DNA from: Candidatus Latescibacterota bacterium
GTDB taxonomy: Bacteria > Krumholzibacteriota > Krumholzibacteriia > WVZY01
NCBI GenBank assembly: GCA_011772205.1
Contig: WVZY01000057.1
Span: 6,190 to 70,189 of the forward strand
Length of the DNA stretch: 64,000 nucleotides
Reading direction: 5' to 3'
A program made the translations under genes and the position numbers. Below the pieces are notes generated by a model. That model was not told the origin of the DNA and did not search any database. It worked only from the letters and a program-made list of their open reading frames with translations. Below, piece after piece: positions 4,085 to 20,829 of this stretch. The number at the start of each line of letters is the position of its first letter. Positions within the stretch are counted from its first letter, which is position 1.

Positions 4085-5071
4085 ATGTTGACGCCGGACT
4101 CTCCCGAATCCCTGATAAAGAAGACGGCATACGAAATCGGTTTCTCCCTCGTCGGCATAACTGACCTCTCACCTTGCCCTGAATCCGATAGTGCATTCGA
4201 AAATTGGCTGGAGGCGGGTAATCACGGGGAGATGCATTACCTCGAGCGATGGAAAGAAAAACATTGCAATCCCTCACTTCTTCTCGAGGATGCAAAATCT
4301 GCCGTCTGTGTCGCTTTGAACTACTACACGAAAGCGTTAGCACGAAATTTGGCCCTCGATGGCAGTGATGGAAGGGGTATCTTTTCGATCTATGCTCACG
4401 GCCGGGATTATCACGACGTCATGGGAGAGATGCTCTCGGCCCTTTCGATGAAGCTTGCAGAGCTTTTCCCGGGGTGGCGGTCGGTTGCATGTGCGGACAC
4501 GAAGCCCGTATCCGACAGGGCGTTTGCGATTCGATCCGGTATCGCCTGGCTGGGAAAGAACACGAACGTCATCTCTCCAAAGTATGGTTCTTGGATCTTT
4601 CTGGGAGAGCTGATCACGAATCTCGAAATGACGCCGGATGCACCGCTAGAGAGCCTTTGTAGTGACTGCACGCTTTGCATCGATGCCTGTCCCGCAGGCG
4701 CTCTTGGACAGGAATATAGTATGGATGCCCGGAAGTGCATATCCTATCTCACCATCGAAAAGCGCGGGGAAATACCGAAAGACTTTCACGGTGCGATCGG
4801 TCTCAATGTTTTCGGTTGTGATGAATGCCAGCGCGTTTGTCCGTATAACGCTGTGGCAGTGGAATCGATTTTATTTTCGAGCGAGGAACGAAACCGGATG
4901 ATCGACATGGAGCTTCAACAACTTGCAGAAATAGGGGACAAGGATTTCAAAAAACTGGCCGTTGGAAGCGTGATAAGCAGGTGCGGAACGGAGGGTCTGA
5001 GAAGAAATGCGGCGATCGCGCTAGCCAATATTGCATCTGGACGTTTTACCTCAAAGGGAAAAAAACGGTAA
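4085..5071 (+). CDS. queG: tRNA epoxyqueuosine(34) reductase QueG
   Basis: Two 4Fe-4S ferredoxin motifs (CSDCTLCIDACP, CDECQRVCPYN), YAHGRDYHDV motif, C-terminal HEAT-like AAIALANI. Confidence 0.8.
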   Translation: MLTPDSPESLIKKTAYEIGFSLVGITDLSPCPESDSAFENWLEAGNHGEMHYLERWKEKHCNPSLLLEDAKSAVCVALNYYTKALARNLALDGSDGRGIFSIYAHGRDYHDVMGEMLSALSMKLAELFPGWRSVACADTKPVSDRAFAIRSGIAWLGKNTNVISPKYGSWIFLGELITNLEMTPDAPLESLCSDCTLCIDACPAGALGQEYSMDARKCISYLTIEKRGEIPKDFHGAIGLNVFGCDECQRVCPYNAVAVESILFSSEERNRMIDMELQQLAEIGDKDFKKLAVGSVISRCGTEGLRRNAAIALANIASGRFTSKGKKR

Positions 5072-6488
5072 AAGTCGTTCCTTCCCCCTCTTTGCTCTTG
5101 CAGTAGATCTGCCCGCCACAGCTCGACAGTATCTTTTGAGAAACAGTCAGTCCCAATCCCTTCCCCTTCACCCCGACGTCTGGAGAATTGGACGCCTGCT
5201 GGAATGGCTCGGTCAATAGCGGAATCTCAGAGGCCGGTATGCCGATTCCCCCATCCGTAACTTTGAATACGACATAAAGTTGCCGGATTTCTGGTGGCTG
5301 AATATCTGATTTTCTCGGACCTATTTTCGGGGTGTCGGAGGGCTCTACCATCAATTCGAGATCGGTCATTTTGTTGTATTCGGCAACGCGCGCTTCGAAT
5401 TGCTCGTTCCAGTCCGGCAGCCAGATCCCATCGATATCGCTAACGGGCGCGCGGGGTTTTTCTTCGAATTCCAATACGACTGAAGCGGATTCGTTCGAGA
5501 ACTTTATCGCATTATCGATCAAATTATTGATGACTTTACGAAATTTAGCAGGCGTCAGCTTCAACTGAGGTAGCACATTGTTTGGGATTTCTATGGTTTC
5601 GATGGATATTTTCCTCTCGGCTGCTATGAGGGTATAGGTTGAGACGACCTCATGAACAATGCTCAAAGGGTTCCAGTCGGTGAGGGGCATGCTCATGTCG
5701 TCAAAATAGGCTTCATTCAAGTCCAGAAGAGAGGTAATGAGATTTTCCAGGCGCGCGACGGATTCGGTGACCCATTTGGCAACTTCACTCTTATCGTCTT
5801 GTAATTCGAGAGCGGAAAGTCCGCTCTTTATTACAGTGAGAGGCGTTCGGAATTCGTGAGTGATCCGGCTCATGATGTCGGTTCTAACGTCGTTCAATTT
5901 TTGGAGCTCTGTCAAAGAAAGCTTGGCATTGAGGAACAGCCTGGCGTGATTGAATGTCATCGCTGAAACAGCGCAGAATGAGTGGAGGAGCGTCGCATCG
6001 GATTCGGAGTAGGACTGAGATGATATCTTTTTCCCAAGAAAAACTATCCCCAGCAGCCTTCCCTTGATATAGAGAGGTGATAAAATTGCAAAGCTATCCA
6101 ATAGTGGTTTGATATTGTTTTCTGCAAGGATGTCTTTTGGCAGATTCGACAGAGCGATTGGGAAGGGGGTTGCATTCAAATATGAAACAAAGGGGGAGGC
6201 TAAGCCAATCACAGGGAAGTTCTTCAAATCAACCTTCCCAAAGCTCACTGCAGGTTCGAGAACGCCGATATCCTCTTTGGCGGAGTAATAGCAGCTTTCG
6301 CCCGAAAGAAACTGTCCCATAATGGTCAACAAAAATTCTCTCTGGAGTGTTTCGAGATCCAATGAACTCCCGTACTTGTTCAAGAGAGATATGAGAGAAT
6401 CGGTCAGGAGTCGCTGTTTCTGGTACTTATTCTTCCATAGTGCCACTTGGGTTCGCGAGCTAGATTCTTTTGTGCTGGTCTTGCTCAT
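5046..6488 (-). CDS. GAF-domain sensor histidine kinase (HisKA plus HATPase_c with a long insertion)
   Basis: H-box HEFRTPLTVIKSG. N-box IDNAIKF. G-boxes DGGIGI and GKGLGL. N-terminal roughly 190-aa GAF-like region. Convergently overlaps queG by 26 nt. Confidence 0.8.
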   Translation of the reverse strand: MSKTSTKESSSRTQVALWKNKYQKQRLLTDSLISLLNKYGSSLDLETLQREFLLTIMGQFLSGESCYYSAKEDIGVLEPAVSFGKVDLKNFPVIGLASPFVSYLNATPFPIALSNLPKDILAENNIKPLLDSFAILSPLYIKGRLLGIVFLGKKISSQSYSESDATLLHSFCAVSAMTFNHARLFLNAKLSLTELQKLNDVRTDIMSRITHEFRTPLTVIKSGLSALELQDDKSEVAKWVTESVARLENLITSLLDLNEAYFDDMSMPLTDWNPLSIVHEVVSTYTLIAAERKISIETIEIPNNVLPQLKLTPAKFRKVINNLIDNAIKFSNESASVVLEFEEKPRAPVSDIDGIWLPDWNEQFEARVAEYNKMTDLELMVEPSDTPKIGPRKSDIQPPEIRQLYVVFKVTDGGIGIPASEIPLLTEPFQQASNSPDVGVKGKGLGLTVSQKILSSCGGQIYCKSKEGEGTTFTVFFPLR

Positions 6489-6512
6489 CTTGATTCTGAT
6501 TTCTAAATCGCG

Positions 6513-7640
6513 TTACACCTTGATCGTGTTTTTCAGCTCTTCGATGCTTCCAACGATCACGAAATAATCGCTGATGTTGAGAATTTCGAAGATGTCGCTA
6601 ATCTCTGAAGGAATTTTCATAAATATGAGATCTCCACCCCGCTGCCTCAGAGATGAGACAGTGCCCAGCAATATTCCTATTCCGGCACTGCTTATGAATG
6701 AAACTTCCGAAAAATCAATGATTATAAACTTCGTTTCGCTGTTGAGAAGGTTCGTTAAGTATTCCTCAACATTCTGTGTAGAGACCGAATCGATACTACC
6801 GATCAATTTGACGATTGTGGCGCCCTCAATATCGCAGGACTCCGATTTAATCGAAAACGTGTTCATACGAATCCTCCTTTGTTTCTCGTGTTGCTCGTGA
6901 GCTCCGCTCTCTTTTTTTGCGACTTTGAAAGATGTGACGTTCCAAGATCCGAGACGTTTGTATTCCGTATCAACACTCAGTTGGTTCATTATAAACAGGC
7001 CAAGGCCTCTAGTTTCTCTTTCTTTGATTTTATCGCTTATGTTCACATGTAACTCGGTTTTGGTAAGAAATACATCTGCATTATCTCTATAGCGGACAGT
7101 GACATAAGCATCGTTTGCTGTTATAGAGAGGACTATTGAAGGTTGATCTGTTTGGAATGTTCCATGCTCGACCGTGTTTATAGCGAGTTCGTAAATGCAC
7201 AACTGAAGTCGTGATAGAGTGCTGTCATCAAGTTCCAGGGCTCGCCCAATGAGGGTTACGGCCAAATTTATTTCGGCAAGGGCTGCGCTGAGGTCCAAAA
7301 AGCTCAAGCAATATTCAATATTATTCGATCTGTCGGATTCTCCAGCTGCCACATTCCGGTATTCGAATCGTGTCGATTTTGACATTTTGAGCTTGTTGCC
7401 ACTTTTACTGGCTTCACTGACATCCTTTGATCCAGTTTGTTTTGAAATTGTCTTGATTGCTTCTTGCGATCGTTTCGATAACGTCTCAGAGTAAAGTATG
7501 TCTATATTGTTTATGCCGATATCCTGGCATATTTTTATGTATCTGGTGAGGCGCTTGGTTGAACGCCGGTCGATCTCGCCATTGATACGGATTGCTATAG
7601 AACCGTCTGTGAAGTTGATATCCTCAATGATCATCAGCAA
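6513..7640 (-). CDS. Fusion protein: STAS-like domain, RsbW/SpoIIAB-type anti-sigma serine kinase (HATPase), and C-terminal STAS anti-sigma-antagonist domain
   Basis: Central LCIYELAINTVEHG (N-box) and RGLGLFIMNQL (G-box). C-terminal STAS with FISSAGIG (phospho-Ser motif). Confidence 0.7.
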   Translation of the reverse strand: MLMIIEDINFTDGSIAIRINGEIDRRSTKRLTRYIKICQDIGINNIDILYSETLSKRSQEAIKTISKQTGSKDVSEASKSGNKLKMSKSTRFEYRNVAAGESDRSNNIEYCLSFLDLSAALAEINLAVTLIGRALELDDSTLSRLQLCIYELAINTVEHGTFQTDQPSIVLSITANDAYVTVRYRDNADVFLTKTELHVNISDKIKERETRGLGLFIMNQLSVDTEYKRLGSWNVTSFKVAKKESGAHEQHEKQRRIRMNTFSIKSESCDIEGATIVKLIGSIDSVSTQNVEEYLTNLLNSETKFIIIDFSEVSFISSAGIGILLGTVSSLRQRGGDLIFMKIPSEISDIFEILNISDYFVIVGSIEELKNTIKV

Positions 7641-7644
7641 GGAG

Positions 7645-9210
7645 CTAAACCTCCATACTTATACGCCTTGACGGCATTTTCATCTCAGCGCTCAAAGCGA
7701 GTAGCGTAATATCGTCTGTTTGAGGGGAGGATTTTCTGAAATTCGCCTCTGCTTCCACTAGCTTTGATACCAGCGCTTTTGCCCCATCTCGAGCGTAGTA
7801 TTTGCAGATTCTAAGAATGCGTTCAAATGTGAATTGCGCGCCTGTTTCATTTTTCGATTCGTTGAGTCCGTCAGTATACCCCAGTATAAGATCCCCCGGC
7901 TTCAGGTAGGCGCGATACTGGGTAAGTTGCCTTTCGAAAGTGGCATCGGCCAATATTCCCAACGGCAGACCTTTCATTTTCACGAGGCGGCACGTGCCGA
8001 TTGAATGCTCATATATCAACAGGGGATTGTGGCCTGCATTCGAACAAGCCAGTTCTGAGTTGCTCTCATCGAAAATTGCAAATAGAAGCGTAACAAACAT
8101 GTTTTGCTTGGTCGTATTCACAAGGGATTCGTTCAATCTTTGTATAACCTCTGTTGGGGCAAGTCCTTTCAATGCGAATTCCTGCACCATGATCTTTACC
8201 ATCGCCATGACAACTAGCCCGGGAACGCCTTTTCCTGAGACATCTGCCATCACCAAAGCGGTCCTGTCATCGTCTATCGGAATCACATCCATGTAGTCGC
8301 CACCCACTTCGTAAGCGGATTGGTAATAATGGCCTATCTCGAAACCACTGGGTTCGCGGATTTTTTTGGGAAGCAACGTGCTTTGGATCTCCCTGGCGAT
8401 CTCGAGCTCTCTTTCCATACGCTCTTTGATGACGAGTTCACGCTGCGCCGCTGCTATCTTGGATGCCATTTCGTTGAAAGATGAAGCTAGCATGCGCAGC
8501 TCATTCTTGGCTTTTATATGTATTTCAGCCTCGAGATTCCCTTCTCCAAATTCGCGAACGCCTCGCATCAAGATATCGAGAGGACGCGAAATGCGTTGGA
8601 AGAGCAGCAGTGAAAAAACAATGCCCAGTAGCAAAGCTGCTAGAGCACAAATCAAGGTGATCGTAATAGCCCGGGTAATGGAATAGTGGAACTCTTCTTT
8701 CGAATATAAGAGATGCACCTTTCCAACAGGTATGTCGAGACTTTTGACAGGCGTCGTAAAGAAATAGTATTGATCATTCTGATACAGTTTATCACCCGGC
8801 CCAAGATGCACCGATCGCACAGGTTGAAATCCTTTTATCTTAAGGCGGTGAGGTGTTCCGATGTTTTGAAGAGTGTTGTCGCCTTGGATGATGCCATTCG
8901 CATCTGTTATTACAACGGAGACGATATCGGAACTTCTATTTGTTAATTGGCTGAGCAATGGGTAAAGCTCGAATTCGGGATCGGGTCTTAGCAATGCTTT
9001 AGTACTGGAGAGAGCGATGTTTTTCCCCTGAAGCACCACAGACCTCTCGATTTCATTTTTCAATATCTTTTTTTCGTGGATAATCAGCAAATAGCTGATC
9101 GAAGCTACTGTAATACCCAAAAGGAATATCGTCCCAAAACACATTTGAGTCTTGAGAGATCGGAAATGGCTTATGCCGAGAGACGGCCTACTCATTCGAG
9201 ACACCACCAA
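7645..9210 (-). CDS. Membrane-bound sensor serine phosphatase (two TM helices, periplasmic domain, HAMP, PP2C/SpoIIE domain; RsbU-like)
   Basis: Two hydrophobic helices flank a roughly 150-aa extracytoplasmic segment. HAMP (NLEAEIHIKAKNELRMLASSFNEMA). PP2C motifs (GGDYMDV, ADVSGKGVPG, GYTDGLNE). Confidence 0.8.
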   Translation of the reverse strand: MVVSRMSRPSLGISHFRSLKTQMCFGTIFLLGITVASISYLLIIHEKKILKNEIERSVVLQGKNIALSSTKALLRPDPEFELYPLLSQLTNRSSDIVSVVITDANGIIQGDNTLQNIGTPHRLKIKGFQPVRSVHLGPGDKLYQNDQYYFFTTPVKSLDIPVGKVHLLYSKEEFHYSITRAITITLICALAALLLGIVFSLLLFQRISRPLDILMRGVREFGEGNLEAEIHIKAKNELRMLASSFNEMASKIAAAQRELVIKERMERELEIAREIQSTLLPKKIREPSGFEIGHYYQSAYEVGGDYMDVIPIDDDRTALVMADVSGKGVPGLVVMAMVKIMVQEFALKGLAPTEVIQRLNESLVNTTKQNMFVTLLFAIFDESNSELACSNAGHNPLLIYEHSIGTCRLVKMKGLPLGILADATFERQLTQYRAYLKPGDLILGYTDGLNESKNETGAQFTFERILRICKYYARDGAKALVSKLVEAEANFRKSSPQTDDITLLALSAEMKMPSRRISMEV

Positions 9211-11203
9211 GCTTCTCTATTTCACCTTTGGTCTTCATCAAGAAACGCTTAGCCTTGATATTGTTTGGTTCGATCTTCAGAGCCTTTTCCCAGCTTTCGA
9301 TAGCTTTATCGTATTGCTCCTGAGAGTAGAATTGCATTCCCACGAGAAGATATGCCTTTGTTAGTATGTTCGATACATCGTGAAAATCGGGATCAATGGT
9401 CCACAGCTCCAATAGTGAGCGAGTCGCTCTATCGAAATCACCTGCTTCAAAATAATCCATGCCTCTCTTATATCTCGTCTCCATCGCCGCAAGATCGACA
9501 TGTGGCTTTTCGCGCTCGACGGTGTCAGGCTTTCGTGGTATCTTCTGCTGCTCCTTACTTTGCGCCTCTGCGAGTGCTTCTTTATGCTTTTGCCTCAAGA
9601 TCTCGATCTCGGACATGATCATCTGGTCATTCGGTACATACATGAGAGCTTGCTCCAGGGCTTTGATGGCTTCATAGTACTCTTCCTTGCTCGCCAATGT
9701 CCTGGACCGCAGAGTGAGGCGCTGCTTGACATTCGCAATATTTACTTGAGCTTTCTGTCTGTACTCCTGAGCGAGAATATTCGTCGGCTGAATCTTCAGG
9801 ATCTCTTCGAAGGCAAGGAGAGCGTCCGAGAACCTTTGGTATGCGTACAGGTCGATCCCTTTCCTGAGGAGCTGATCGATTAGGAGCGCTTGATCTCGCG
9901 ATTCGGATAACCTCTGCTCGCAGGCTCGAATATGAGATGCTGCTGTCGAATCACCGGGGATGCTCATGAGCGCCTGCCTGAAATGATAGATAGCCTGCAA
10001 GCAGTCCGCTTCTTTCATGAAAGCGAGACCTTTGTTCAGGGAGATGTTGTATTTCGCTTTGACCAGGCGGTCGCGGGCATGTTCGTTTTCGGGATCCCAG
10101 TAAAGAACGATTTCGTATGATCCAATTGCATTTTCGTAATCTTTTTGTACAAAGAATCTGTCAGCTTTCTCGATGGAGCTGGTTATTTGTTCCTGCTCGA
10201 TCGAATCCATTTTTCTATTTATCTCGGCATTGATCTCTTCCTCAAGTTCTCGCCTTGCTTTTTCTCTCGTCTCATCCGTGGAAAGGCCGAATGATACCGA
10301 TAGAGAAATACGATGATTCGATCCGAGGTCTTCGTCTCTAAACGCATAGTCCACGGTGAGCATCCGATATGCCGCGCCGAGTCCGAAGGTAGGTGTCGTA
10401 TCGTCGATGCCCGCGCGCAGGAAGAAGCGGTCGAGTATTGTAATTTCCTCCCCGAACCTGAAAGAAAATGGGGAATACCTCGGATTTACCAAATCGATGG
10501 AGGTGATGAAGCTGACCTTGTCGAATTCTGATAGTGCGGATACTCCGAATACCACCCGCATTGGATCGGAGACTTTTTCCTGATCGAGTTTGACGGAAGG
10601 TTCTATGATGTTCTGTATGGCAAGGCCTTCTCGGAGTTCTTTGATGAAGCGCGTATTCTTGATCTGTTGGCTCGATGCTAATCCGACATCTATACCGACG
10701 CCTGAGCCGCTGAGTTCTCCGAAAGATTGATTGTCTATTTTCAAGTTAAAGCCGGCCGAGAAGCCAGAATGCACATTCTTGGCATATCCCAGCAAGATGC
10801 GGGTCTGGCTGTTTTTCAAATCACTTGACAATAGCTGATTGTTATCGTCTCTCTCTTCTATCCCGCTGATGTCCAGTCTGAGAATGCTTATACCCAGAGT
10901 GCCATAGTTCAGGGTGGGATGTGTGTAACTCACGGTATGGTAAAGTGACTTCGAGTCGAAAAGAACCGTACGGAAGAACTGAAACTGCTTCCACTTAATA
11001 TCGGCCAGCAATGCGGGATTGAAATACTGCACGGCGGGATCTCCCTTGAGGCTCGTATAGGCGAGTCCCATGCCGGAGGCCCTGGCTCCCACTCCGATAA
11101 CAAAAGGCAGCTCGGTCCCGTAAGAGTCGGCATGAGGCGCCCTCGGCATAGCTGCTGCCAAGATGACGCTGAGCCAGGCGACGCAAAGAGAGCGCTTTTT
11201 CAT
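9188..11203 (-). CDS. Outer-membrane PorV/PorP(SprF)-like FadL-superfamily beta-barrel fused to a C-terminal TPR-repeat domain
   Basis: Start ATG at 11203 (MKKRSLCVAWLSVILAAA signal peptide) overlaps the stop of the giant upstream gene by 4 nt (ATGA). N-terminal about 300 aa carry GARASGMGLAY...DPAVQYFNPALLA, characteristic of the PorV/PorP family. About 400 aa of TPR/Sel1-like helical repeats follow. Confidence 0.6.
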   Translation of the reverse strand: MKKRSLCVAWLSVILAAAMPRAPHADSYGTELPFVIGVGARASGMGLAYTSLKGDPAVQYFNPALLADIKWKQFQFFRTVLFDSKSLYHTVSYTHPTLNYGTLGISILRLDISGIEERDDNNQLLSSDLKNSQTRILLGYAKNVHSGFSAGFNLKIDNQSFGELSGSGVGIDVGLASSQQIKNTRFIKELREGLAIQNIIEPSVKLDQEKVSDPMRVVFGVSALSEFDKVSFITSIDLVNPRYSPFSFRFGEEITILDRFFLRAGIDDTTPTFGLGAAYRMLTVDYAFRDEDLGSNHRISLSVSFGLSTDETREKARRELEEEINAEINRKMDSIEQEQITSSIEKADRFFVQKDYENAIGSYEIVLYWDPENEHARDRLVKAKYNISLNKGLAFMKEADCLQAIYHFRQALMSIPGDSTAASHIRACEQRLSESRDQALLIDQLLRKGIDLYAYQRFSDALLAFEEILKIQPTNILAQEYRQKAQVNIANVKQRLTLRSRTLASKEEYYEAIKALEQALMYVPNDQMIMSEIEILRQKHKEALAEAQSKEQQKIPRKPDTVEREKPHVDLAAMETRYKRGMDYFEAGDFDRATRSLLELWTIDPDFHDVSNILTKAYLLVGMQFYSQEQYDKAIESWEKALKIEPNNIKAKRFLMKTKGEIEKLGGVSNE

Positions 11204-14200: not shown

Positions 14201-17200
14201 GCAAGAACATCATCTTCGCCAAGGGCGGCGCGGTAAGGGGGAACCGGATCTGTGTTAATTTGCGCGGCAATCATCCCATCGGTGAAGTCCACACCGGGAG
14301 AATTGATCGGGAATTCACCTTGGATTTCGATCGAGCTGCTGGATAGGGTGATGTCAGCGCTTGAGTTTAGCTGAAGATTGAAGCTGACAGAATCCCTGAC
14401 TGCAAGGATCGCATCGTATGAGACGAACAGGTAGGTTATCCGTTTCGGACTCAGAGCCAGTCCGAGTGTATCGAGAGTGTAATAGTTGTTGTCGTGATGT
14501 CCAATTGCGAGGAGGCTGTCTGATGCAGGATCGAACAGTCCGTTCGAATCGATATCAGCAAAAGCATGAACCACCTCGATCTCACTGTTCACAACGGTTC
14601 CGGTCTGGAAAAGTTTGAGCGTCTCGACATTGAACGATGACGAATATCCGTTGTAAAAGCCTATACCAAAGTTGAGTTCATTCTTCGCGCCGGGATACAC
14701 GTATTTGTCACCTACGGAATAGGGGAATACCGTGAGCTCATTGGGCTTGGGTATCAATTGGATCGAGGGATTGATAACGGATGCATCGATAGGACCATCA
14801 TTTCCGGACGCCACCTCAATGCCTGAAGTAAGAATCTCGAACTGGATCGATGCACTGGTGGAGTACGTCGTATGGAGATCGGCCGCGGCGAAAAATCTCG
14901 TACGCTGCCCGCAAGGCATGGTGAGCGGTACGGCCATTGCTGGCATCAAATAAGTTTTGCTGCCCATATCAACAAAGTCGCCGAGGTAGCTGTCGTCACC
15001 CGAGCCTGTGTCGAATGTTCCATTGCCTCCATCGGCATACAAAGCCAGACGAGAGAAATGTTCCGAGTTCGCACTGCCCTGGTTGAAGATCTCGATGGAT
15101 TTCAACGTATCCAATTCGTAACCATTTGCCGGGATCGAGAAGTCGAGGACGAGAATATCGGTAATCTCAGTAACGATGAGACTGTCGGCAGTCGGAAAGA
15201 CTTTGATCTGATGAGCCAGCATGCCATTTATAACTAGCGGCTCCGGCGTTTCCAAGGGGAAGAACCCGACAATTGGCTTAGATGCGTCGAAATGCAGTGA
15301 TGAAGCGGATGGTATTTCTATTTTGAGCGTGTCGCCGTCACGTGCGCATGAGGAGTCGATGTCGCATGCAAAGAGTAGGTGGATGGTTTCACCGGCTGAG
15401 AGTGTCTTGGTGATGTTGCGAGCAACAAGAGATCCTCCCGAGAAAAGGAGGCTATCAGCCAGCAATTGATCCCATGCGTCTACGTTCCCATTGCCGTCGT
15501 CCGAATAGATCTTCAATCGCGCGATCTCTCCGTCCAGTTCGGCCGGTGCACCTGCGCCCGACGACATGTTCGACACGGACAACGAATCCAGCGTAAGGCT
15601 CTGCAGGGTGTTGTTATTGATGCTCGCCATTAAAATCGAAACATCCGCTGCACCAGGACGCGGCCAGCCGGCAGGGATCGGCTGGTTGGCAACTTCGATC
15701 TGTTCGATTCTTTTGATCGTATGAGTGGAATCTCCTGCTATTAGATAGTCGATGGGGCCGTCGTTTGCTGACATCACTCCAACGCCCTCGATGGGGATGG
15801 CCGGCCTGAAATGGTCTCCATCGTTTGCGTTGGTCGAGATGTCTGCAACGACGTAGAACTTGCGCGCAGCGCCCACAGGGATTTTGATCCCTGATATCTC
15901 GAAGCGGTCACCCGAGAAAACCATATTTCCAAGGGGGAGATCGACTCCAGGATCGAATACAGCATCCCCGTCATCCAGATAGAGCCGCAGCGCGCTGAAA
16001 TCTGCCGGAGAAAAATCTCCTGACACATCCATTACTGATAGTGCAGTGAGCGTATCCGCCTCATAACCGTTCTGCGGAAATGCAGCAGTGAGGAGCAGGT
16101 TGTCGGAAGCACCCGAACTAAGGGTGTCCAGGCTCGAAGGCGTCACAGAGATCTGATGCGAGACCATTCCGTCGATAACGAGGTACCCATAGGAGTTGAC
16201 GGGGTATAAAGGAGAAAAGTCCTCCAGTACATCGGTGCTATCCGTGAAAACGACATCGAAGGGAGATAGCAATATGGCATCCAGCTTGTCGCCGTCGCGG
16301 GCAAGAAAAGAGTCGATCGTCACTGCAACAAAGAGGTAGCTGGTATCCCCAGCAGGGATTGCCAATCCTCCGTTGATGGCGAAAGTAGTCCGCCCCGAAA
16401 CGAAGAAGGAAGTCGAAACGAGTGTGTCCGCTGCGGATAGCGTCCTGCTGGAATCCACATCATGATATAAAAAGAGCGAATCGAACTCGGCATCGAGTTC
16501 AAACTGCCCCCCTGGGCCGATAGTTGCATTCGTGACGATCAACGTGTCGAGGTAGCGGCTGCTTGAATATTGATTGTGGAATTCCAAAGCGAGAACCGCT
16601 TCATTGCTTGTTCCTGGATAAACGTCCTCCACGGATAGTGGAACCGCCTTGATGATGATCCTCGGGATATCGATATCGATGCTGTTCCGCCCGGCCGTTG
16701 ATATCGTATCGCTGTACGCTTTGCCATAGTCGTCCGTTCCGGCGAAGGTGATCGTGAGGTCGTATGTCGCGGGTGCAACAATTCCGGTTGGGACGGGAGA
16801 AGGGAGGAATGCGATGGTGAAATCATCCGCAGAAGGCGGTACATAAGTTGGATTCCCGAGCCTGGCCTGATATACTTTTGATCCATCCGTAAAGGAGATC
16901 GTCGAAGCGGTATCGAGCATCACGCCCACATTGGTCGAGTTGTCCATCCCGATGCGAAGCGCGAGCTGAGGATCCTCCACATTGGCTGTCGATGGGTACA
17001 GAGAATTGGGAGAATCTCTTAGAATCACGCGTTCTATCACGGTCACTTCGACGGAATCGCTGTTGTTGATAGTGTTCGGGTCTTCTTGATCAACGTTCGA
17101 GATCGAAGCGATGTTGGTGATCATGGAATCCACCGTTCCAGAATCGACGGTGGCCGTGATGATCAGCGTGGCGGTATCAGCGCCCGCGAGAACGCCCACG

Positions 17201-20200
17201 GTCCAGATCCCCGTGCCGCTAACATATGCCCCCTGGCTGGTTGTATCTGAATGGTATGTAACTCCCTGCGGAAGGAGATCCGTTACCTCGATTACTGCGG
17301 CGGTGTCCGGGCCATTGTTTATGAGCATGACGGTATAATTGAGAGAGTCGCCTTCATATGGCATCGTGACATCGGCTGATTTCACGATCTCGAGATCGGA
17401 GCTTTGAACGACGATATCGAACGACGCGATGTTGTTCGTCGTGTCTGGGTCGGCCTGATCGGCACCTAAGATTGTGGCGATATTTGTGATCGTTGAAGCA
17501 CCCGTTCCGGGATTGACAGTAGCGGTGAGCAGTAGAGTTGCGGAATCAGAGGAGGCCAGTGTGCCCACCGCCCAGACGCCCGTAGCACTCACATAGCTGC
17601 CCTGACTCGTTGTATCGGATTGGTACGTGATCCCAGCGGGCAAGAGGTCGGAAACTTCAATTCCCGTCGCAGTGTCCGGCCCCAGGCTGGCCAGCTTGAT
17701 GGTGTAAGTGAGCGTATCCCCAACACTTGGTGATGGGTTGTCGACGATCTTAGAGATTTCGAGATCCGCTCCTTGGACGGTGATGACTGTTGTGTCAATG
17801 TTGTTGATTGCATTCGTGTCAGGTTGATCGGAAGCTGTGATACCGGCAACATTGGTGATCATTGAACCGGCCGTTCCTGCATCGACGGTCCCATTGATTA
17901 CGAGTGTCGCGATTGCGGAATTCACGAGGGCGCCCACCGTCCAAAGCCCCGTACTGCTCGCGTACGTACCCTGGCTGGGGGCGTCGGCTAGATATGTCAC
18001 TCCCGCCGGTAGGAGGTCTGTTACTTCTACGCCCGTGGCATCGTCGGGTCCGTTGTTGGTTACTGTAATGGTGTAAGCGAGGGTGTCCCCTTCATTGGGT
18101 ATCGAGTCGTTCACCGCTTTTGCAATTGACAAATCCAGTGTTGCGGCATCGCGGAAGGCCACATAAAAATAAGCGTCGCCGTTTCTATTGACATCGTTGA
18201 GAGCTCCAATCTGGAAACCATCGGGCAGGAAGGTTTGAATGCCATCACTGAAAGCCGCACCGGGATCCATCGGCAGCGTATTGTCACCGGGTAGAGAAGA
18301 GGGTCGATGAACGGCCGGAGAGCCATTCGGACCACGCGTGAGGATCATATAACGGGGCTGCAGGCCAACTCCTGTAATATCTCGATTGTCCAACCCATTC
18401 CCCAGATACAGATTTTCGGCAATTCTGCCTGGTATTCTGTTCCATGCCACGCAGTGGTGGGCGATGCCTGTTTTATTGACCGTATTGTGACTGCCAATTT
18501 GGAATCCGGTTGGTTCGAAATTCTGTATCCTGTTGGTTCTTTCGTCGCTTGACTGGAAGGGTAGGCTTGCATCAAGCGGTTCGGAGGCAAACCGCTGCAT
18601 CGCATCTTCGCCATCCTCGCTCATTATGATCACATAAGCAGGGGAAAACCCGACGCTGCCGATGCTCCGGTTGTCCGTGCCGTTACCAACGTACGAATCC
18701 ACCACCATCTGCCCCGGAGCTGCGAGAAATGCGGTCCAGTAGTAGGTGACTCCTGGCGCGTTCACCTGTGCTCCCGAGCCAATCCTGAATCCATTCGGCA
18801 TAAAGGTGGTAATGAGATTGCTCAGCAACGCTGAGTTTGTCCCAAGCTCCTTGGAAACATCTCCGACCATCGTGGACGTCCTGGCCACCGCTGGTTCATC
18901 GTTGTCTCCTTTGATGATCACGAGATCTGGCCAAAACTGGAGGCCTGTTATCGGATGATTGTTGGATCCATCCCCCAGATAGCTGCCCGTGACTATCTGG
19001 AAGTCTTCATATTGAACAGAGATGTTGGCGGTGTCGAAGTTGTTGGCACTATTCGTATCTGCCTGATCAACGGCGATGAGTGTTGCCGTGTTGACAATGA
19101 TAGTCCCCAGCGTTCCCAAGTTCACGGTGGCGACAATATCCAACGTTGCGCTACCGCCGTTAGAGATAGCACCGACAATCCACCTGCCGGTAACGCTGCT
19201 GTAACCACCTTGGCTGGGAGTATCGGAGACATACGTAACTCCCGCCGGGAGCAGATCCAGGACTTCGACGCCTGTCGCATCGCCGGGGCCGTTATTTGTC
19301 AGTGTGACCGTGTAGGTGACGGTGTCCAATTCGCTGGGAACCGGATTATCGACGATCTTGGCGACCGCCAGGTCGAGGGCTGGTGCGGTGCGGAAAGCCA
19401 CCCAATAGAATTTTTCTCCATTATCATTGACGGCAACGTCCGAACCAATTTGGAACCCATCGGGCAAGAATGCCTGGATGCTGTTGCTAAGCGCGCTGTT
19501 CCCCGGAATAAGGAAACAAAAATCTCCTACGAGGGAGGCGGGACGATGAAAAGCCGCGTAATTGCTGCCGTCATGCTTGATTAGCATGTATTCGGGTTGA
19601 AAACCGACTCCGGTGATATCCCGGTCATCGGATCCATCTCCCGTGTAGTCATTGCCCGCTATTTTCCCCGGCGATACTTTCCAAGCCGCGTAATGGAAGG
19701 CGACCGACGATTGGTTGACATTTGGATGTGACCCAACCTGGAAGCCGCTGGGTTCGAATGCCTGGATCAAGTCGGGTTCTTCGGCGGCTGGAGTGAATTG
19801 TATGCTTCGATCGCCTGTCTGTGTGGGGAATCGCTGAATGGCCTGGCGTGGCGATTCACTCATTACGATTACGTAATCAGGTTGGAATCCGACGGTCGGG
19901 ATACTCCGATCGTCACTGCCATCACCAAGATAAGATCCGACTGCCAGCTCGTTCGGTGCTGCTTTGAACGCAATCCAGTAAAAGTCAATCCCCGGCTCGT
20001 TGACTTGGAAATCCGATCCAATCGTGAAGCCGTCGGGGTCCAGCGATTGAATTCTATTGCCCACTAGGCCTGTTCCGGCTCCGAGTGCTTTCGAAGTATC
20101 ACCCATCATGCTGGATGAGCGCGTGATAGTGGATTCGTTGTTATCTCCTTTGATGATAACGAGATCGGGCTTGAAGCCAATACCTGTTATAGGGGTGTTA

Positions 20201-20829
20201 TCTATGCCGGTTCCCGTATAGCTGCCCGTGTTCATCCGCATGCCGCTGCCGGCAGTGACAACCACCAGGCTGGGGCGCTGGCTTGGGAGCATCCATTCCC
20301 TGCTAAAATATTTGGACTCCGTATCGAATGACGTCGAGATGAACATCAGTCCTTCGTTGGAGTAAGTCCCCTCCACCCATTCACTCACGAGCGGTGTGAT
20401 GTCTACGGCTACTATCCCCGGTGAATTAGGAACAAAAGTCCCGTAGATAGTGGAATTGTCGTAGTCGTTGGCTGTATTGTTCCAGTTCACACCGCTTTCG
20501 GTCCAGCTGTCCGTAACGCGATAGATCGAAACGGGGCTGCCGCTGATATCCGGAGCAGATACATAGAAGAAGGCAACTGCGGTGGTGACAGTTTCACCGG
20601 CGGGAATTGGCGAGAGATCGTAACGGCAGACAACGCGGAAGCTGTCAGCGGGAGTGCTTTTATTGAATAATTCCAGGTCACTTCCGTGGTTTTCGAAAGG
20701 TGCCGCCTGCTTCAACCAGCTGTCCTGATCGAGATAGGCGGTATAAATGCCACCCTCCGCCCTCAATGGCAGCATTGTAAGAGCCGGGAAAATCAGCAGA
20801 AGCGCAATTTTTTTCGAATACATGCTCAC
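11200..20829 (-). CDS. Giant secreted surface protein (3209 aa): signal peptide, DNRLRE-like N-terminal domain, repeated about 95-aa beta modules, DUF11 repeats, long Ser/Thr-rich beta-rich region, T9SS-type C-terminal sorting domain
   Basis: Uninterrupted 9.6-kb ORF. N-terminal signal peptide. Six DUF11-like units (LTNNGPGDATGVEV..LLPAGVTY). C-terminal 85 aa match the Por_Secre_tail/FlgD-Ig-like CTD (NYPNPF...WDGRNDEGDVVNNGVYYLVL). Confidence 0.85.
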   Translation of the reverse strand: MSMYSKKIALLLIFPALTMLPLRAEGGIYTAYLDQDSWLKQAAPFENHGSDLELFNKSTPADSFRVVCRYDLSPIPAGETVTTAVAFFYVSAPDISGSPVSIYRVTDSWTESGVNWNNTANDYDNSTIYGTFVPNSPGIVAVDITPLVSEWVEGTYSNEGLMFISTSFDTESKYFSREWMLPSQRPSLVVVTAGSGMRMNTGSYTGTGIDNTPITGIGFKPDLVIIKGDNNESTITRSSSMMGDTSKALGAGTGLVGNRIQSLDPDGFTIGSDFQVNEPGIDFYWIAFKAAPNELAVGSYLGDGSDDRSIPTVGFQPDYVIVMSESPRQAIQRFPTQTGDRSIQFTPAAEEPDLIQAFEPSGFQVGSHPNVNQSSVAFHYAAWKVSPGKIAGNDYTGDGSDDRDITGVGFQPEYMLIKHDGSNYAAFHRPASLVGDFCFLIPGNSALSNSIQAFLPDGFQIGSDVAVNDNGEKFYWVAFRTAPALDLAVAKIVDNPVPSELDTVTYTVTLTNNGPGDATGVEVLDLLPAGVTYVSDTPSQGGYSSVTGRWIVGAISNGGSATLDIVATVNLGTLGTIIVNTATLIAVDQADTNSANNFDTANISVQYEDFQIVTGSYLGDGSNNHPITGLQFWPDLVIIKGDNDEPAVARTSTMVGDVSKELGTNSALLSNLITTFMPNGFRIGSGAQVNAPGVTYYWTAFLAAPGQMVVDSYVGNGTDNRSIGSVGFSPAYVIIMSEDGEDAMQRFASEPLDASLPFQSSDERTNRIQNFEPTGFQIGSHNTVNKTGIAHHCVAWNRIPGRIAENLYLGNGLDNRDITGVGLQPRYMILTRGPNGSPAVHRPSSLPGDNTLPMDPGAAFSDGIQTFLPDGFQIGALNDVNRNGDAYFYVAFRDAATLDLSIAKAVNDSIPNEGDTLAYTITVTNNGPDDATGVEVTDLLPAGVTYLADAPSQGTYASSTGLWTVGALVNSAIATLVINGTVDAGTAGSMITNVAGITASDQPDTNAINNIDTTVITVQGADLEISKIVDNPSPSVGDTLTYTIKLASLGPDTATGIEVSDLLPAGITYQSDTTSQGSYVSATGVWAVGTLASSDSATLLLTATVNPGTGASTITNIATILGADQADPDTTNNIASFDIVVQSSDLEIVKSADVTMPYEGDSLNYTVMLINNGPDTAAVIEVTDLLPQGVTYHSDTTSQGAYVSGTGIWTVGVLAGADTATLIITATVDSGTVDSMITNIASISNVDQEDPNTINNSDSVEVTVIERVILRDSPNSLYPSTANVEDPQLALRIGMDNSTNVGVMLDTASTISFTDGSKVYQARLGNPTYVPPSADDFTIAFLPSPVPTGIVAPATYDLTITFAGTDDYGKAYSDTISTAGRNSIDIDIPRIIIKAVPLSVEDVYPGTSNEAVLALEFHNQYSSSRYLDTLIVTNATIGPGGQFELDAEFDSLFLYHDVDSSRTLSAADTLVSTSFFVSGRTTFAINGGLAIPAGDTSYLFVAVTIDSFLARDGDKLDAILLSPFDVVFTDSTDVLEDFSPLYPVNSYGYLVIDGMVSHQISVTPSSLDTLSSGASDNLLLTAAFPQNGYEADTLTALSVMDVSGDFSPADFSALRLYLDDGDAVFDPGVDLPLGNMVFSGDRFEISGIKIPVGAARKFYVVADISTNANDGDHFRPAIPIEGVGVMSANDGPIDYLIAGDSTHTIKRIEQIEVANQPIPAGWPRPGAADVSILMASINNNTLQSLTLDSLSVSNMSSGAGAPAELDGEIARLKIYSDDGNGNVDAWDQLLADSLLFSGGSLVARNITKTLSAGETIHLLFACDIDSSCARDGDTLKIEIPSASSLHFDASKPIVGFFPLETPEPLVINGMLAHQIKVFPTADSLIVTEITDILVLDFSIPANGYELDTLKSIEIFNQGSANSEHFSRLALYADGGNGTFDTGSGDDSYLGDFVDMGSKTYLMPAMAVPLTMPCGQRTRFFAAADLHTTYSTSASIQFEILTSGIEVASGNDGPIDASVINPSIQLIPKPNELTVFPYSVGDKYVYPGAKNELNFGIGFYNGYSSSFNVETLKLFQTGTVVNSEIEVVHAFADIDSNGLFDPASDSLLAIGHHDNNYYTLDTLGLALSPKRITYLFVSYDAILAVRDSVSFNLQLNSSADITLSSSSIEIQGEFPINSPGVDFTDGMIAAQINTDPVPPYRAALGEDDVLALAFTIPSNGTLTDVLKSVAVQNNGTAVTGQDIIILKLWAEDGGNPLGFSSSDDRFLSILVWNGSAWQNPTGLSEAIPSSGLKCYVTFSVSNVATDESTFQARIPTNSIQVASGNDGPIDAAIVNPFEQTISTDPLLTSLHTDRSSYSMGQSIVLSMRVRNEGATPLSEISPSIISTTGSGVVNYQTGPSASSFDLPAGTDTTVIWTYVAASTGDISFCGNAFTGDSLEISEFSCSNDAQIQNRPHDIFIALNDLSPTSANRGQENVHLFELQCKHDVIDSLSATTLLDKLTLSFEDGAASPLPPNSILKSLSLINPNSGQHTFVLVDSSTNPVTLDVEPSISVLPWDDLVLDAFCQLSDSAAFTSFRIRIDQIDDIRVIDSNDSAAVTLSSQASFPWVTNDIDINAPAETLFVSAAAADTVFANVAQDNVAPLQLELLNGGDLTSASELLTRLTLSFYDTTGATIPPNAVIRKISLSTSGSVIYTTEDIPVTGNQLVCNLGSPLVLQPQSEKYIDILVDLKAFPLTDGFYLSVNDPLAIIARDFNSGQLIKVVPKSGSPGFPLLSSMMLFQTPASGVAVSHLSTLPPTLLPSMQSIPVMDIALTHSDTSSASSVELDSIAVIFSELGGTPLFPGGYFSNLRLLHNGDTLSTNSSLSSSFAIAELTLNPPLTVAPAASETLQIVLDTKSSYTPAVFEMRINKDQLVLFDSNDRSRIYEISGSFPLVTNPGALRLPSSLALCGLESKLPSNISTVQPGIPAFDLLIQNGNPEGSTDIEFRSLTVRIENIKGRILDPSQLLSGAYLSSKDSVIATGQITNSEISITIPAGLIVVTAGTTDTLFFDVDVSTQSAGENIRFVIEDSASVAVEDATTSGVMSVGTIGGTGYPLKSGTAHILGADNKEGFTNYPNPFAAGREETRITYYLDNQSYVTLELYTLWGAPVKTLLSNKLSNPGLHQDVVWDGRNDEGDVVNNGVYYLVLEIRAVGGQQSTLKRKVGVLR
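11203..11460 (-). other. Region encoding the T9SS-type C-terminal sorting domain (CTD) of the giant protein
   Basis: Last roughly 85 residues: GFTNYPNPFAAGREETRITYYL...GVYYLVLEI. Confidence 0.6.
17035..18138 (-). repeat. Four tandem DUF11 (conserved repeat domain) coding repeats inside the giant gene (aa about 898-1265)
   Basis: Divergent but clearly homologous protein repeats of roughly 120 aa: LxxxNNGPD.ATGxEVxDLLPxGxTYxSDxxSQGxY. Confidence 0.7.
19390..20223 (-). repeat. Triplet of roughly 95-aa beta-repeats (GSYxGDGSDDRxIxGxGFxPD...FxIGSxxxVNxxGxxYxxxAF), set 1. A second triplet lies at about 18145-18991, separated from set 1 by a DUF11 unit at about 19012-19380.
   Basis: Seen in the translated giant ORF, aa about 203-480 and 613-895. 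Confidence 0.55.

Follow-up and report, generated by a model that had tools for sequence, protein, structure and literature searches.

A probable operon of Latescibacterota and relatives encoding a giant T9SS-type surface protein, a PorV-like barrel with a TPR arm and a partner-switching module

Why should genes for a serine-phosphorylation switch follow directly on those for a giant surface protein and its putative outer membrane carrier? The question is raised by a 64-kb stretch of DNA from an uncultured Latescibacterota bacterium (here called the window), for which a preliminary description had claimed five packed minus-strand genes at positions 5046 to 20829. All five open reading frames were recovered there, and encode a giant surface protein (11200-20829; 3209 aa, GTG start codon), a PorV-like barrel with a tetratricopeptide repeat (TPR) arm (9188-11203; 671 aa counted from ATG), a HAMP-PP2C sensor phosphatase (7645-9210; 521 aa), an RsbW-type kinase-STAS protein (6513-7640; 375 aa) and a GAF histidine kinase (5046-6488; 480 aa).

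Operon structure and conservation

The genes are flanked by an aconitase gene upstream of the giant gene and by a convergent queG downstream, which overlaps the 3' end of the histidine kinase gene by 26 nt. The gene junctions were largely as described: the stop codon of the giant gene and the start codon of the barrel gene have a common ATGA, 4 nt separate the PP2C and kinase genes (given the kinase TTG start at 7640, with GGAGG 5' of it), and 24 nt separate the kinase and histidine kinase genes, but the reported 23-nt overlap of the barrel and PP2C genes holds solely with a TTG start at 9210. An ATG at 9195 may be an alternative start codon of the PP2C gene and gives an 8-nt overlap with the barrel gene, like that in the closest relative (L003). 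As had been stated, neither a sigma factor nor a response regulator is encoded within the operon.

The claimed terminator 5' of the giant gene was confirmed. It is the intrinsic terminator of the aconitase gene (21144-21183, minus strand; 11-bp stem, 12-nt loop, U6; RNA fold of -19.3 kcal/mol, z = -3.0) and is the 5' boundary of the giant-gene transcription unit; it was absent from the output of an automatic scan because its loop exceeds 8 nt. A new feature, absent from the earlier account, is a predicted sigma-54-type -24/-12 promoter, TGGCATGCACCTTGCT, at 20978-20993 on the minus strand, 164 nt 5' of the GTG of the giant gene. Nowhere else in the window does TGGCAYGNNNNTTGCW match exactly. 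With at most one mismatch, the motif lies 100 to 240 nt 5' of the giant gene at six loci (L003, L004, L010, L016, L023 and L024), and these six sites are among only eight such matches on both strands of 837 kb of locus sequence, suggesting a conserved promoter. In a scan, promoter-like and terminator-like sites were scarcer within the operon than in shuffles, and the operon appears to be one terminator-bounded unit read from this putative promoter.

Synteny in relatives was strongly positive. Across 18 non-redundant loci from Latescibacterota, Krumholzibacteria and deeper lineages, in which PorV-TPR identity falls from 63% to 25%, the giant gene, the barrel-TPR gene and the HAMP sensor gene were adjacent in every case, the stop codon of one mostly overlapping the start codon of the next; an arrangement seen in so many non-redundant loci is beyond chance. 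Kinase and STAS modules stand alongside PP2C at all 16 assessable loci. The GAF histidine kinase occurs at 9 of the 18 loci, the most distant (L017) included, and is thus an optional member of the operon. We consider it very probable that the genes form an operon that is transcribed from a sigma-54 promoter, has been inherited vertically in Latescibacterota and relatives, and encodes the giant protein, the barrel-TPR protein, the PP2C sensor and the kinase-STAS module, with the GAF kinase present in half of the lineages. One genome (CP070677.1) holds three paralogous copies of the operon, in each of which the barrel has its own sensor copy. The signaling genes are absent beside PorV-like barrels that have no TPR arm (L019 and L020) and beside a truncated PorV-TPR-like relative (L014). 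Barrel, TPR, Cache and PP2C modules co-diverge (r = 0.73 to 0.96), a pattern that shared ancestry would produce by itself. No sigma factor, response regulator, enhancer-binding protein or cyclase was found in or beside any locus examined.

The signaling genes could have been retained simply at a stable core-genome position without any functional link, and the flanking housekeeping genes (fumarase/aconitase on one side, queG/lonC on the other) do keep their order in many loci, as in a generally syntenic region. This explanation is very improbable, given that the full gene set is retained in other neighborhoods at the paralogous copy L010, at L016 and at the distant L017, and that another paralogous copy (L002) keeps at least the giant-barrel-sensor core in a different neighborhood, the rest lying behind a 100-N scaffold gap. 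Also against it are junctions that overlap or span no more than 24 nt and cross-gene fusions of PP2C with kinase (L007) and of kinase with STAS (the window).

The giant protein and its barrel

The giant protein begins with a signal peptide (aa 1-25), followed by a DNRLRE/CBM96 module (aa 33-190) and by DUF7483 units with about six DUF11 repeats (aa 198-1315), both assigned with Pfam and NCBIfam. Self-BLAST revealed three repeats of about 320 aa (aa 1388-2363) and four of about 165 aa (aa 2445-3032), after which come tandem Ig-like domains and then a C-terminal sorting domain (CTD). AF2 modeled the final 300 aa (pLDDT 91.6) as all-beta tandem sandwiches, and a Foldseek search with the C-terminal model was not discriminating. 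The T9SS CTD-like domain itself (11203-11517, minus strand; aa 3105-3209; NYPNPF ... GVYYLVLE ... KRKVGVLR) scores under the Pfam cut-offs, with FlgD_ig at E = 5e-5 and 23 bits against a cut-off of 27 and CHU_C at E = 1e-3. Among 20 orthologous CTDs, FlgD_ig matched 19, CHU_C 11 and Por_Secre_tail 4. A profile of the CTD family matched residues 1061-1154 of the Porphyromonas gingivalis PorU CTD in the PDB (E = 3.7e-5), and the remote sequence matches were proteins carrying PF18962, two of which bear the source name "T9SS type A sorting domain-containing protein." The proposed T9SS-type CTD was thus borne out, in that the last ~100 aa share homology with C-terminal sorting domains of the T9SS. 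No gene for the T9SS core components SprA/Sov, PorK/L/M/N or PorU was found within the 64-kb window.

The neighboring gene product has a signal peptide, a conserved N-terminal segment (YGTELPF..G.GAR..G.G) and then a 14-strand outer membrane barrel of the PorV/PorQ family (10280-11128, minus strand; aa 26-308 out of 671). It scores 100.9 bits against NF033709 (PorV_fam; cut-off 90), and an AF2 model (pLDDT 81.6) shows the 14 strands. The top two Foldseek matches of the model in the PDB were chain F of 8gl6 and of 6h3i (E = 2e-11 and 1e-10; TM normalized to the target, 0.63 to 0.65), ranking above FadL, TodX and OmpG. These chains belong to Flavobacterium johnsoniae SprA-PorV translocon complexes, 6H3I being the SprA-PorV-PPI "PorV complex" (PMC10994853), and judging by size (345-367 residues), chain F is taken to be PorV. 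The preliminary description had named a PorV/PorP-like barrel with TPR: the PorV/PorQ type and the TPR stand, but the PorP/SprF type does not, as no PorP/SprF Pfam model matched and the PorV_fam score is above cut-off. Assignment as the PorV, PorQ or PorV2 equivalog was likewise rejected, with scores under the equivalog cut-offs.

Fused to the C terminus of the barrel are about 360 aa made up of a long helix (aa 309-352) and a TPR array (to aa 666; together 9191-10279, minus strand), as indicated by Pfam TPR matches, AF2 helices and Foldseek matches to TPR proteins. From this position, a periplasmic location of the arm is expected. The arm evolves fastest in the operon, with identities of 34 to 56% among close orthologues compared with 52 to 74% for the barrel.

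The sensor phosphatase and the cytoplasmic switch

Pfam bore out the reading of the third gene product as a HAMP-PP2C sensor phosphatase. It comprises TM1 (aa 23-46), a periplasmic single-Cache-like domain (aa 47-175), TM2 (aa 176-209), HAMP (aa 203-252) and PP2C/SpoIIE (aa 313-507), the classic receptor order of TM-Cache-TM-HAMP-output, and was predicted to reside in the inner membrane. Its hydrophobic segments and its metal-binding motifs (GGDYxD, DVSGKG, TDG and DD) are kept in each of the 12 PP2C orthologues whose sequence is readable at these motifs, suggesting a catalytically intact phosphatase. Orthology with SiaA was rejected (weak NCBIfam match at E = 9e-11, but 41 bits against the equivalog cut-off of 700).

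A distant locus, L013, has HD-GYP in place of PP2C as the output of its sensor, and neither kinase nor STAS follows; the periplasmic domain and HAMP of this sensor nevertheless align end to end with those of the PP2C-type sensors. What is conserved as the barrel's partner is therefore the sensor in the periplasm and not the cytoplasmic chemistry.

The kinase fusion contains an RsbW-type serine kinase (aa 119-231; N box ELAINTVEHG, DNADVF and RGLGL) and a STAS domain (aa 271-367; FISSAG) with Ser317 as candidate phospho-acceptor. Pfam HATPase_c_2 and STAS both match, TIGR00377 exceeds its cut-off, PDB matches include SpoIIAA, RsbV and TM1442, and the motifs are conserved in 13 to 16 orthologues. 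Of the STAS-RsbW-STAS fusion originally described, the kinase and the C-terminal STAS were recovered, whereas the N-terminal STAS was not (hhalign probability of 0.9% in the window protein); residues 1 to ~75 form a conserved domain, and a weak STAS_2 match (E = 5.7e-4) was seen in the distant orthologue at L017. Kinase and STAS lie on separate genes at L006, L007 (where the kinase is joined to PP2C), L011, L017 and L025. By hydropathy these proteins have no TM segments and are cytoplasmic.

In the histidine kinase, the previously proposed GAF and kinase domains were found, the GAF (~aa 35-190) through a family profile against the PDB only (GAF domains of DevS/DosT at E about 4e-6, compared with E = 0.11 for Pfam GAF_2 alone). 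HisKA with His211 (ITHEFRTP) and HATPase_c were assigned with Pfam, and alignment shows that an insertion of ~60 aa separates the N box of the latter from its G1 box. This protein is also cytoplasmic, without a TM segment or an adjacent response regulator.

Direction of signaling and related systems

We tentatively favor, at somewhat under even confidence, an outside-in signaling scheme in which the state of the adhesin and barrel is sensed in the periplasm and recorded by the cytoplasmic serine-phosphorylation switch. The giant protein would cross the outer membrane by a T9SS-like route and be kept on its dedicated barrel by an uncleaved CTD, as with PorU on PorV and PorZ on PorQ. The TPR arm would extend into the periplasm, where the Cache domain of the phosphatase could read the state of arm and barrel (cargo loaded or absent, ligand bound, or strained). 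HAMP would relay this state to PP2C, which would dephosphorylate a STAS serine kept phosphorylated by the kinase; unphosphorylated STAS would then re-bind the kinase (in cis when fused), freeing or engaging an output partner. That partner would be encoded outside the operon or might, where present, be the GAF kinase, and the ultimate output could be a sigma-54 activator or c-di-GMP turnover. Information would thus flow from the cell surface inward, a direction supported by the receptor layout of the sensor and by the HD-GYP swap in L013. Small molecules are the usual ligands of Cache domains, which counts against such a relay. Also against the scheme are the co-divergence of the modules, for which common descent would suffice, the CTD scores under the Pfam cut-offs, the lack of T9SS core genes in the 64-kb window and the lack of an output gene at the loci examined.

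The Cache domain might instead bind a soluble periplasmic ligand, such as a degradation product of a polymer bound by the CBM96/DNRLRE module and repeats and possibly entering through the FadL-like barrel, while the TPR arm serves secretion or assembly and the genes share one physiological program without protein contact. We regard this as possible but rather unlikely. The ligand-binding fold sCache_3_2 matched 5 of 15 orthologous sensors as well as database relatives, with no match in the window sensor itself; the sCache-HAMP-PP2C family is large (1940 representatives at E <= 1e-10, some fused to RsbW kinase); PorV groups structurally with FadL/TodX channels; and a module of carbohydrate-binding type stands at the start of the giant protein. 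A nonsignaling role of the TPR arm is also plausible given that SprE/PorW is a periplasmic TPR scaffold of the T9SS translocon (PMC10994853). What small-molecule sensing leaves unexplained is the overlap of sensor and barrel genes at all 18 loci down to 25% identity, the separate sensors that three paralogous barrels of a single genome each retain, and the other PorV-like barrels that stand beside giant cargo with neither TPR arm nor sensor.

Control could also run from inside out, with environmental input through Cache and GAF setting adhesin deployment and the partner switch governing how the giant protein is secreted, anchored or translated. As a precedent, Bordetella BtrU, BtrV and BtrW are all required for type III secretion, and BtrV acts posttranscriptionally (PMC8256260); a nontranscriptional target is plausible here because the locus has no sigma factor or DNA-binding output, and the conserved N-terminal domain of the kinase fusion could be an effector. 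We nevertheless judge this improbable. With STAS and kinase in the cytoplasm and the barrel and secretion step at the outer membrane, a direct target is hard to name, and L013 retains the giant gene, barrel-TPR gene and sensor without kinase or STAS, so that the phospho-switch is dispensable for cargo handling.

In the literature searched, no paper connected T9SS to partner switching, to RsbU or to anti-sigma antagonists, and none connected Latescibacteria to T9SS. This agrees with the claim of an undescribed arrangement, and no earlier account was found there of secretion and signaling parts coupled in one conserved operon. Known T9SS pairs (PorU-PorV, PorZ-PorQ, and type-B-CTD proteins with PorP/SprF, e.g., SprB-SprF) likewise place a large Sec/CTD surface protein beside a dedicated barrel. 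Cargo genes cluster with their cognate barrel genes, cognate barrels may retain uncleaved CTDs, and the PorU CTD stays uncleaved and bound to PorV (PMC10202324). The CTD family profile matches the PorU CTD, and the barrel is PorV/PorQ by score and fold. However, the best-matched PorV chains (345-367 residues) are barrel sized and have no TPR arm, unlike the window barrel with its ~360 aa; T9SS is described as a Bacteroidota system (PMC10202324), whereas the host here is a member of the Latescibacterota; and none of the known pairs is followed by signaling genes.

Bordetella BtrU/BtrW/BtrV likewise tie PP2C, an RsbW-like kinase and STAS genetically to a secretion system, and no sigma factor target has been identified for them (PMC8256260; PMC7498569). 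That system is a T3SS, whereas the parts here are of T9SS type and the phosphatase, unlike that of Btr, is a receptor that sits in the membrane, has a domain in the periplasm and is encoded by a gene overlapping the barrel gene. To our knowledge, no outer membrane component is encoded beside the Btr switch. Pseudomonas aeruginosa SiaABCD likewise combines a membrane HAMP-PP2C (SiaA) with the kinase SiaB and the switch protein SiaC, which is phosphorylated, and has a non-sigma output controlling aggregation and biofilm (PMC7647112, PMC8457831). In contrast to SiaABCD, the operon here contains no diguanylate cyclase. We know of no adhesin or outer membrane barrel gene linked to SiaABCD. In Chlamydia, the PP2C phosphatase spans the membrane as a receptor whose ligand-binding domain is periplasmic, and the Rsb components are encoded at separate places. 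This RsbU-RsbV1/2-RsbW system performs partner switching without a dedicated alternative sigma factor (PMC8256260). Unlike the operon here, it is not known to be tied to a secreted adhesin or outer membrane carrier.

The Vibrio fischeri syp locus has sigma-54 promoters. Through SypE-SypA, a STAS protein controlled by a kinase/phosphatase steers a surface-matrix program (PMC8256260). The protein families of syp and of FecA-FecR differ throughout from those described here, and both systems lack a PP2C receptor and a T9SS-type pair of cargo and carrier. In FecA-FecR, a barrel in the outer membrane that extends into the periplasm signals to a sensor in the inner membrane, the same logic as we propose for this operon.

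Operon architecture and its conservation across genomes

Five minus-strand open reading frames (ORFs) lie at exactly the coordinates given in the preliminary description: the giant surface protein gene (11200-20829, 3209 aa), the gene for a barrel protein with a C-terminal TPR arm (9188-11203, 671 aa), the sensor phosphatase gene (7645-9210, 521 aa), the kinase-STAS fusion gene (6513-7640, 375 aa), and the GAF histidine kinase gene (5046-6488, 480 aa). The stop codon of the giant gene and the ATG of the barrel gene share an ATGA, as described, and the reported gaps of 4 nt and 24 nt were found at the remaining junctions. The 23-nt overlap reported between the barrel and PP2C genes holds with a TTG start at 9210; with an ATG at 9195 the overlap is 8 nt, in agreement with the closest relative. 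The histidine kinase gene, the last in the operon, ends convergently against queG. The terminator noted upstream of the giant gene is an intrinsic one (21144-21183, -19.3 kcal/mol, z = -3.0) that ends the aconitase gene. Promoter-like and terminator-like sites are rarer inside the operon than in shuffled sequence, and Rfam searches of the 410-nt leader and of the whole window returned no match. Elsewhere the 64-kb window has a housekeeping character (Lon-like protease, queG, TCA enzymes, peptidases, PFOR, and thiol-redox and selenoprotein-related genes), and no T9SS core gene (SprA/Sov, PorK/L/M/N, PorU, PorW), sigma factor, or enhancer-binding protein was found within the window or the fetched flanks. 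The thiol-redox/selenoprotein-related cluster at 37049-43114 encodes an OS_HP2 family protein, a ResA-like thioredoxin, and a TsoB/DsbD-like protein.

Near-full-length relatives of the barrel-TPR protein number 74, at 40-63% identity, and those with an organism name are all from Latescibacterota or Krumholzibacteria metagenome-assembled genomes (MAGs). Synteny was compared across 18 non-redundant loci (the window and L001, L002, L003, L004, L006, L007, L009, L010, L011, L012, L013, L015, L016, L017, L023, L024, and L025), in which the order giant gene, barrel gene, HAMP sensor gene is kept. The linkage is invariant: a giant-protein homolog is encoded directly upstream of the barrel gene in every locus with upstream DNA, usually with a 4-nt overlap, and an overlapping HAMP sensor gene follows directly downstream in 18/18 loci (17 PP2C and 1 HD-GYP). 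Kinase and STAS come after PP2C in all 16 assessable loci, as one fused gene in some lineages and as two genes in others, and L007 has a PP2C-kinase fusion. The GAF kinase is present in half of the loci (9/18), including the most diverged one, L017 (25% identity). Many loci lie between fumarase/aconitase and queG/lonC, indicating a core-genome position; L010, L016, and L017 have different neighborhoods and retain the full gene set, and L002, also in a different neighborhood, has a scaffold gap that conceals its kinase/STAS region. That these genes stay together with no functional link among their products seems to us very improbable in view of this conservation. The co-divergence of all parts (r = 0.73-0.96), including TPR arm and Cache domain, is indistinguishable from shared phylogeny.

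Three paralogous copies of the locus are present in CP070677.1, the obvious genome in which to seek T9SS core genes, rpoN, and enhancer-binding proteins. This "complete" MAG chromosome has 100-N scaffold gaps at two of the paralogous loci. One lies inside the giant gene (L001 8993-9092), so that an apparent 301-aa "mini-cargo" there is an assembly artifact; the other lies inside the PP2C gene (L002 13235-13334, equivalent to L008 13223-13322) and mimics a loss of kinase and STAS. The same genome carries tandem genes for Hanks-type Ser/Thr kinase-TPR proteins, three upstream of L001 (1-6489) and two downstream of L010 (16330-21620), and nothing comparable occurs in the window. In L012 (CAWBQK010000006.1; 4788-7129 and 9860-10925), both the barrel-TPR gene and queG are broken into a pair of ORFs, probably by assembly frameshift errors rather than as pseudogenes.

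A PorV/PorQ-family barrel and its giant partner

Residues 36-305 of the barrel-TPR protein passed the cut-off of the NCBIfam PorV/PorQ family model NF033709 (100.9 bits versus 90) and failed the equivalog cut-offs for PorV, PorQ, and PorV2 (NF033710, NF033711, and NF052325; 31.3/250, 42.6/220, and 59.3/325 bits, respectively). A member of its cluster at >=90% identity is named [quoted passage not shown] by NCBI. An AlphaFold (AF2) model (35 homologs; pLDDT 81.6) has 14 strands, after which come a helix of 44 residues and a TPR array reaching the C terminus. The best two PDB matches of the barrel in Foldseek were 8gl6_F and 6h3i_F (E = 2e-11 and 1e-10; TM 0.63-0.65), with FadL, TodX, and OmpG ranking behind both. 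Entry 6H3I is the SprA-PorV-PPI complex (PMC10994853), and from chain size and complex composition we infer that chain F of both entries is PorV. The predicted fold is a 14-strand FadL-like barrel closest to PorV. Hence, of the "PorV/PorP-like" label originally applied to this protein, the PorV-like part is borne out by the family model and the structural matches, and the PorP part had to be dropped, as no PorP_SprF Pfam match was obtained at E <= 0.01. Because an even-stranded barrel puts its C terminus in the periplasm, we expect the TPR arm to lie there as well.

PorV-like barrels that lack the TPR arm (L019 and L020) have no signaling genes alongside, nor does L014, a shorter, truncated PorV-TPR-like relative from Elusimicrobia. 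At L020 (JAVHRY010000138.1, 1-9539), a 512-aa PorV-like barrel without the arm is preceded by a 9403-aa protein and by a PQQ-repeat protein that carries Por_Secre_tail. Outside Bacteroidota, it may be common for giant cargo to have a dedicated PorV-like barrel beside it.

The giant protein begins with an N-terminal Sec signal peptide, read directly from its sequence (MSMYSKKIALLLIFPALTMLPLRAEG), followed by a DNRLRE/CBM96 module, DUF7483 units, and about six DUF11 repeats; two more repeat series, one with three units of ~320 aa and one with four units of ~165 aa, have no family match. The last 300 aa form tandem beta-sandwiches in a confident structure model (pLDDT 91.6), and the final ~100 aa contain the motifs NYPNPF, GVYYLVLE, and KRKVGVLR. 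Taken alone, the window C-terminal sorting domain (CTD) narrowly missed the thresholds of Pfam (FlgD_ig, 23 bits versus 27; CHU_C, E = 1e-3) and had no match to Por_Secre_tail. Among 20 orthologous CTDs, FlgD_ig matched 19, the type IX CHU_C model 11, and Por_Secre_tail 4. The CTD family profile aligned over nearly its full length with the C-terminal domain of Porphyromonas gingivalis PorU in PDB (E = 3.7e-5), and the distant sequence relatives are PF18962-bearing proteins, among them two that their sources label "T9SS type A sorting domain-containing protein". Foldseek was not discriminating here: the C-terminal 300-aa model retrieved tandem-Ig adhesins of a generic kind, and PorU ranked only 31st. 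The tail of the giant protein is likely, by homology, a T9SS-type CTD, at scores that do not reach curated cut-offs.

Envelope receptor, phospho-switch, and a possible outside-in relay

The sensor phosphatase has the topology of a membrane receptor, in which two hydrophobic segments (aa 23-46 and 176-209) flank a 130-aa domain and are followed by HAMP and SpoIIE/PP2C. The 130-aa domain is kept in all sensor orthologs and was matched by sCache_3_2 in 5/15 of them, the window copy not being among these. A homolog search with the sensor N terminus returned only 4 partial proteins; an exhaustive profile search showed sCache-HAMP-PP2C to be a large family.

The claimed PP2C/SpoIIE, RsbW kinase, and STAS parts were all recovered, with SpoIIE at E = 1e-46, HATPase_c_2 at 45.6 bits (cut-off 27.4), and STAS at 72 bits in Pfam and 70 bits in TIGR00377 (cut-off 53). 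The catalytic motifs are intact: the metal-binding motifs GGDYxD, DVSGKG, TDG, and DD are kept in every PP2C ortholog with readable sequence, and the kinase N box, DNAxxF, and GLGL box are conserved among orthologs. We take DNAxxF, the G1 box of the window kinase, to be RsbW-like. The STAS domain resembles SpoIIAA, RsbV, and TM1442; the serine motif FISS(A/S)G occurs in 12/13 STAS sequences (FMNSSG in L011), and Ser317 of the fusion presumably aligns with the position of SpoIIAA Ser58. A second, N-terminal STAS domain had also been assigned to the fusion, and this assignment is not supported: the first ~75 residues gave an hhalign probability of 0.9% against the family's own STAS and no Pfam match in the window copy, with a weak STAS_2 match only in the L017 ortholog. 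This segment is nevertheless a conserved domain. No sigma factor or other candidate switch target was found in the operon or flanks of any locus examined.

One diverged locus, L013 (WJIQ01000337.1, 26% identity), encodes the giant protein, the barrel-TPR protein, and then an sCache_3_2-HAMP-HD-GYP sensor (5430-6878) that can be aligned with the window sensor along the entire TM-Cache-TM-HAMP portion. Here HD-GYP replaces PP2C, and neither kinase nor STAS follows downstream. The constant companion of the barrel is accordingly the periplasmic receptor, whereas the cytoplasmic chemistry is exchangeable. This output swap is also our best evidence that the signal begins in the envelope and runs inwards. 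The opposite direction, in which the switch governs deployment of the adhesin much as Btr governs a type III secretion system (PMC8256260), has that precedent in its favor, and in view of L013 we regard it as quite improbable.

We tentatively favor an outside-in relay, to which we would give something approaching an even chance as a whole. The giant protein would be exported by a T9SS-like route and held on its cognate barrel via the CTD, in the manner of PorU on PorV and PorZ on PorQ (PMC10202324). The TPR arm would then show the state of the barrel or its cargo to the Cache domain, HAMP would set PP2C activity, PP2C and the RsbW-type kinase would together set phosphorylation of the STAS serine, and the switch would act on a partner encoded outside the operon. 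A rather unlikely alternative has a small molecule as the ligand of the Cache domain and limits the TPR arm to a role in secretion; SprE, a TPR scaffold of the extended T9SS translocon (PMC10994853), is a precedent for such an arm. Against this alternative, the armless barrels of L019 and L020 stand without signaling genes.

An extension of the outside-in relay, which we put forward as doubtful, is a surface-contact or adhesin-load sensor built on the type IX secretion pathway, with the carrier barrel signaling via its TPR arm. The PorV-like carrier would keep the 3209-aa adhesin outside, and the periplasmic arm would signal to a Cache-HAMP receptor that the adhesin is present, has bound a ligand, or is under mechanical strain. 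The output module of this receptor could be swapped, being the PP2C partner switch in most lineages and HD-GYP in one. If true, this would represent an unknown class of trans-envelope signaling, in which a secretion carrier is the outer-membrane half of the transducer, and T9SS-type cargo-carrier pairs with their own regulation would exist outside Bacteroidota. A carrier barrel with a periplasmic arm, tied gene by gene to an inner-membrane receptor, offers a testable hypothesis for how a Gram-negative cell might monitor the deployment or engagement of a giant adhesin.

Regulation of T9SS is understood mainly via PorX/PorY/SigP in Bacteroidota. The window operon shares the cargo and cognate-barrel logic of T9SS pairs, and its phosphatase-kinase-STAS chemistry is that of Btr, SiaABCD, SypE/SypA, and chlamydial Rsb, partner switches with non-sigma outputs. 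What appears to be new is the combination, gene by gene and outside Bacteroidota, of a PorV-family barrel with a periplasmic TPR arm, a Cache-HAMP receptor, and a phospho-switch, which we have not found described; in our literature search, no paper connected T9SS to partner switching, RsbU, or anti-sigma antagonists, nor did any connect Latescibacteria to T9SS. The fused, split, and output-swapped variants of the operon provide a natural series for studying partner switches without a sigma-factor target.

Sigma-54 promoter and the GAF histidine kinase

A sigma-54-type -24/-12 promoter (TGGCATGCACCTTGCT, 20978-20993, minus strand), absent from the preliminary description, matches the consensus with correct spacing and is the sole exact match within the window. 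Allowing up to one mismatch, the motif TGGCAYG-N4-TTGCW also precedes the giant gene by 100-240 nt in L003 (the closest relative), L004, L010, L016, L023, and L024, and these six sites account for 6/8 such matches in 837 kb of fetched locus sequence; it is absent upstream of the giant gene in L001 and L015. The conservation of this promoter implies that the operon most likely requires an enhancer-binding activator, and neither rpoN nor an enhancer-binding protein gene was found in the window or the fetched flanks. In the uncultured Latescibacterota, the locus is a phylum-wide, core-genome feature that carries a sigma-54 promoter.

The histidine kinase is a soluble protein in which the H, N, G1, and G2 boxes are all intact. 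Its N-terminal domain matched the GAF domains of DevS/DosT and phosphodiesterases in profile searches against PDB (E about 4e-6), in keeping with its original naming as a GAF histidine kinase. A family-specific insertion of ~60 aa (aa about 346-405 of the protein encoded at 5046-6488) lies between the N box and G1 box of the ATP-binding domain; it is found in six close orthologs and not in the distant L017 copy. As first described, the operon contains no sigma factor or response regulator. None adjoins the kinase gene, and the nearest is a response regulator-HD-GYP-like ORF 27 kb from the operon. It would be speculation that the GAF kinase feeds the enhancer-binding activator.

That distant ORF (33558-35066, plus strand, 502 aa) has a weak match to a NosR-family response regulator/c-di-GMP phosphodiesterase model. 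Two further sigma-54-like sites, each with 1 mismatch, occur on the plus strand of the window, one at 31676-31691, 33 nt upstream of a HEAT-repeat ORF (31724-33565), and the other at 36557-36572, about 490 nt upstream of the ORF at 37049-37840.
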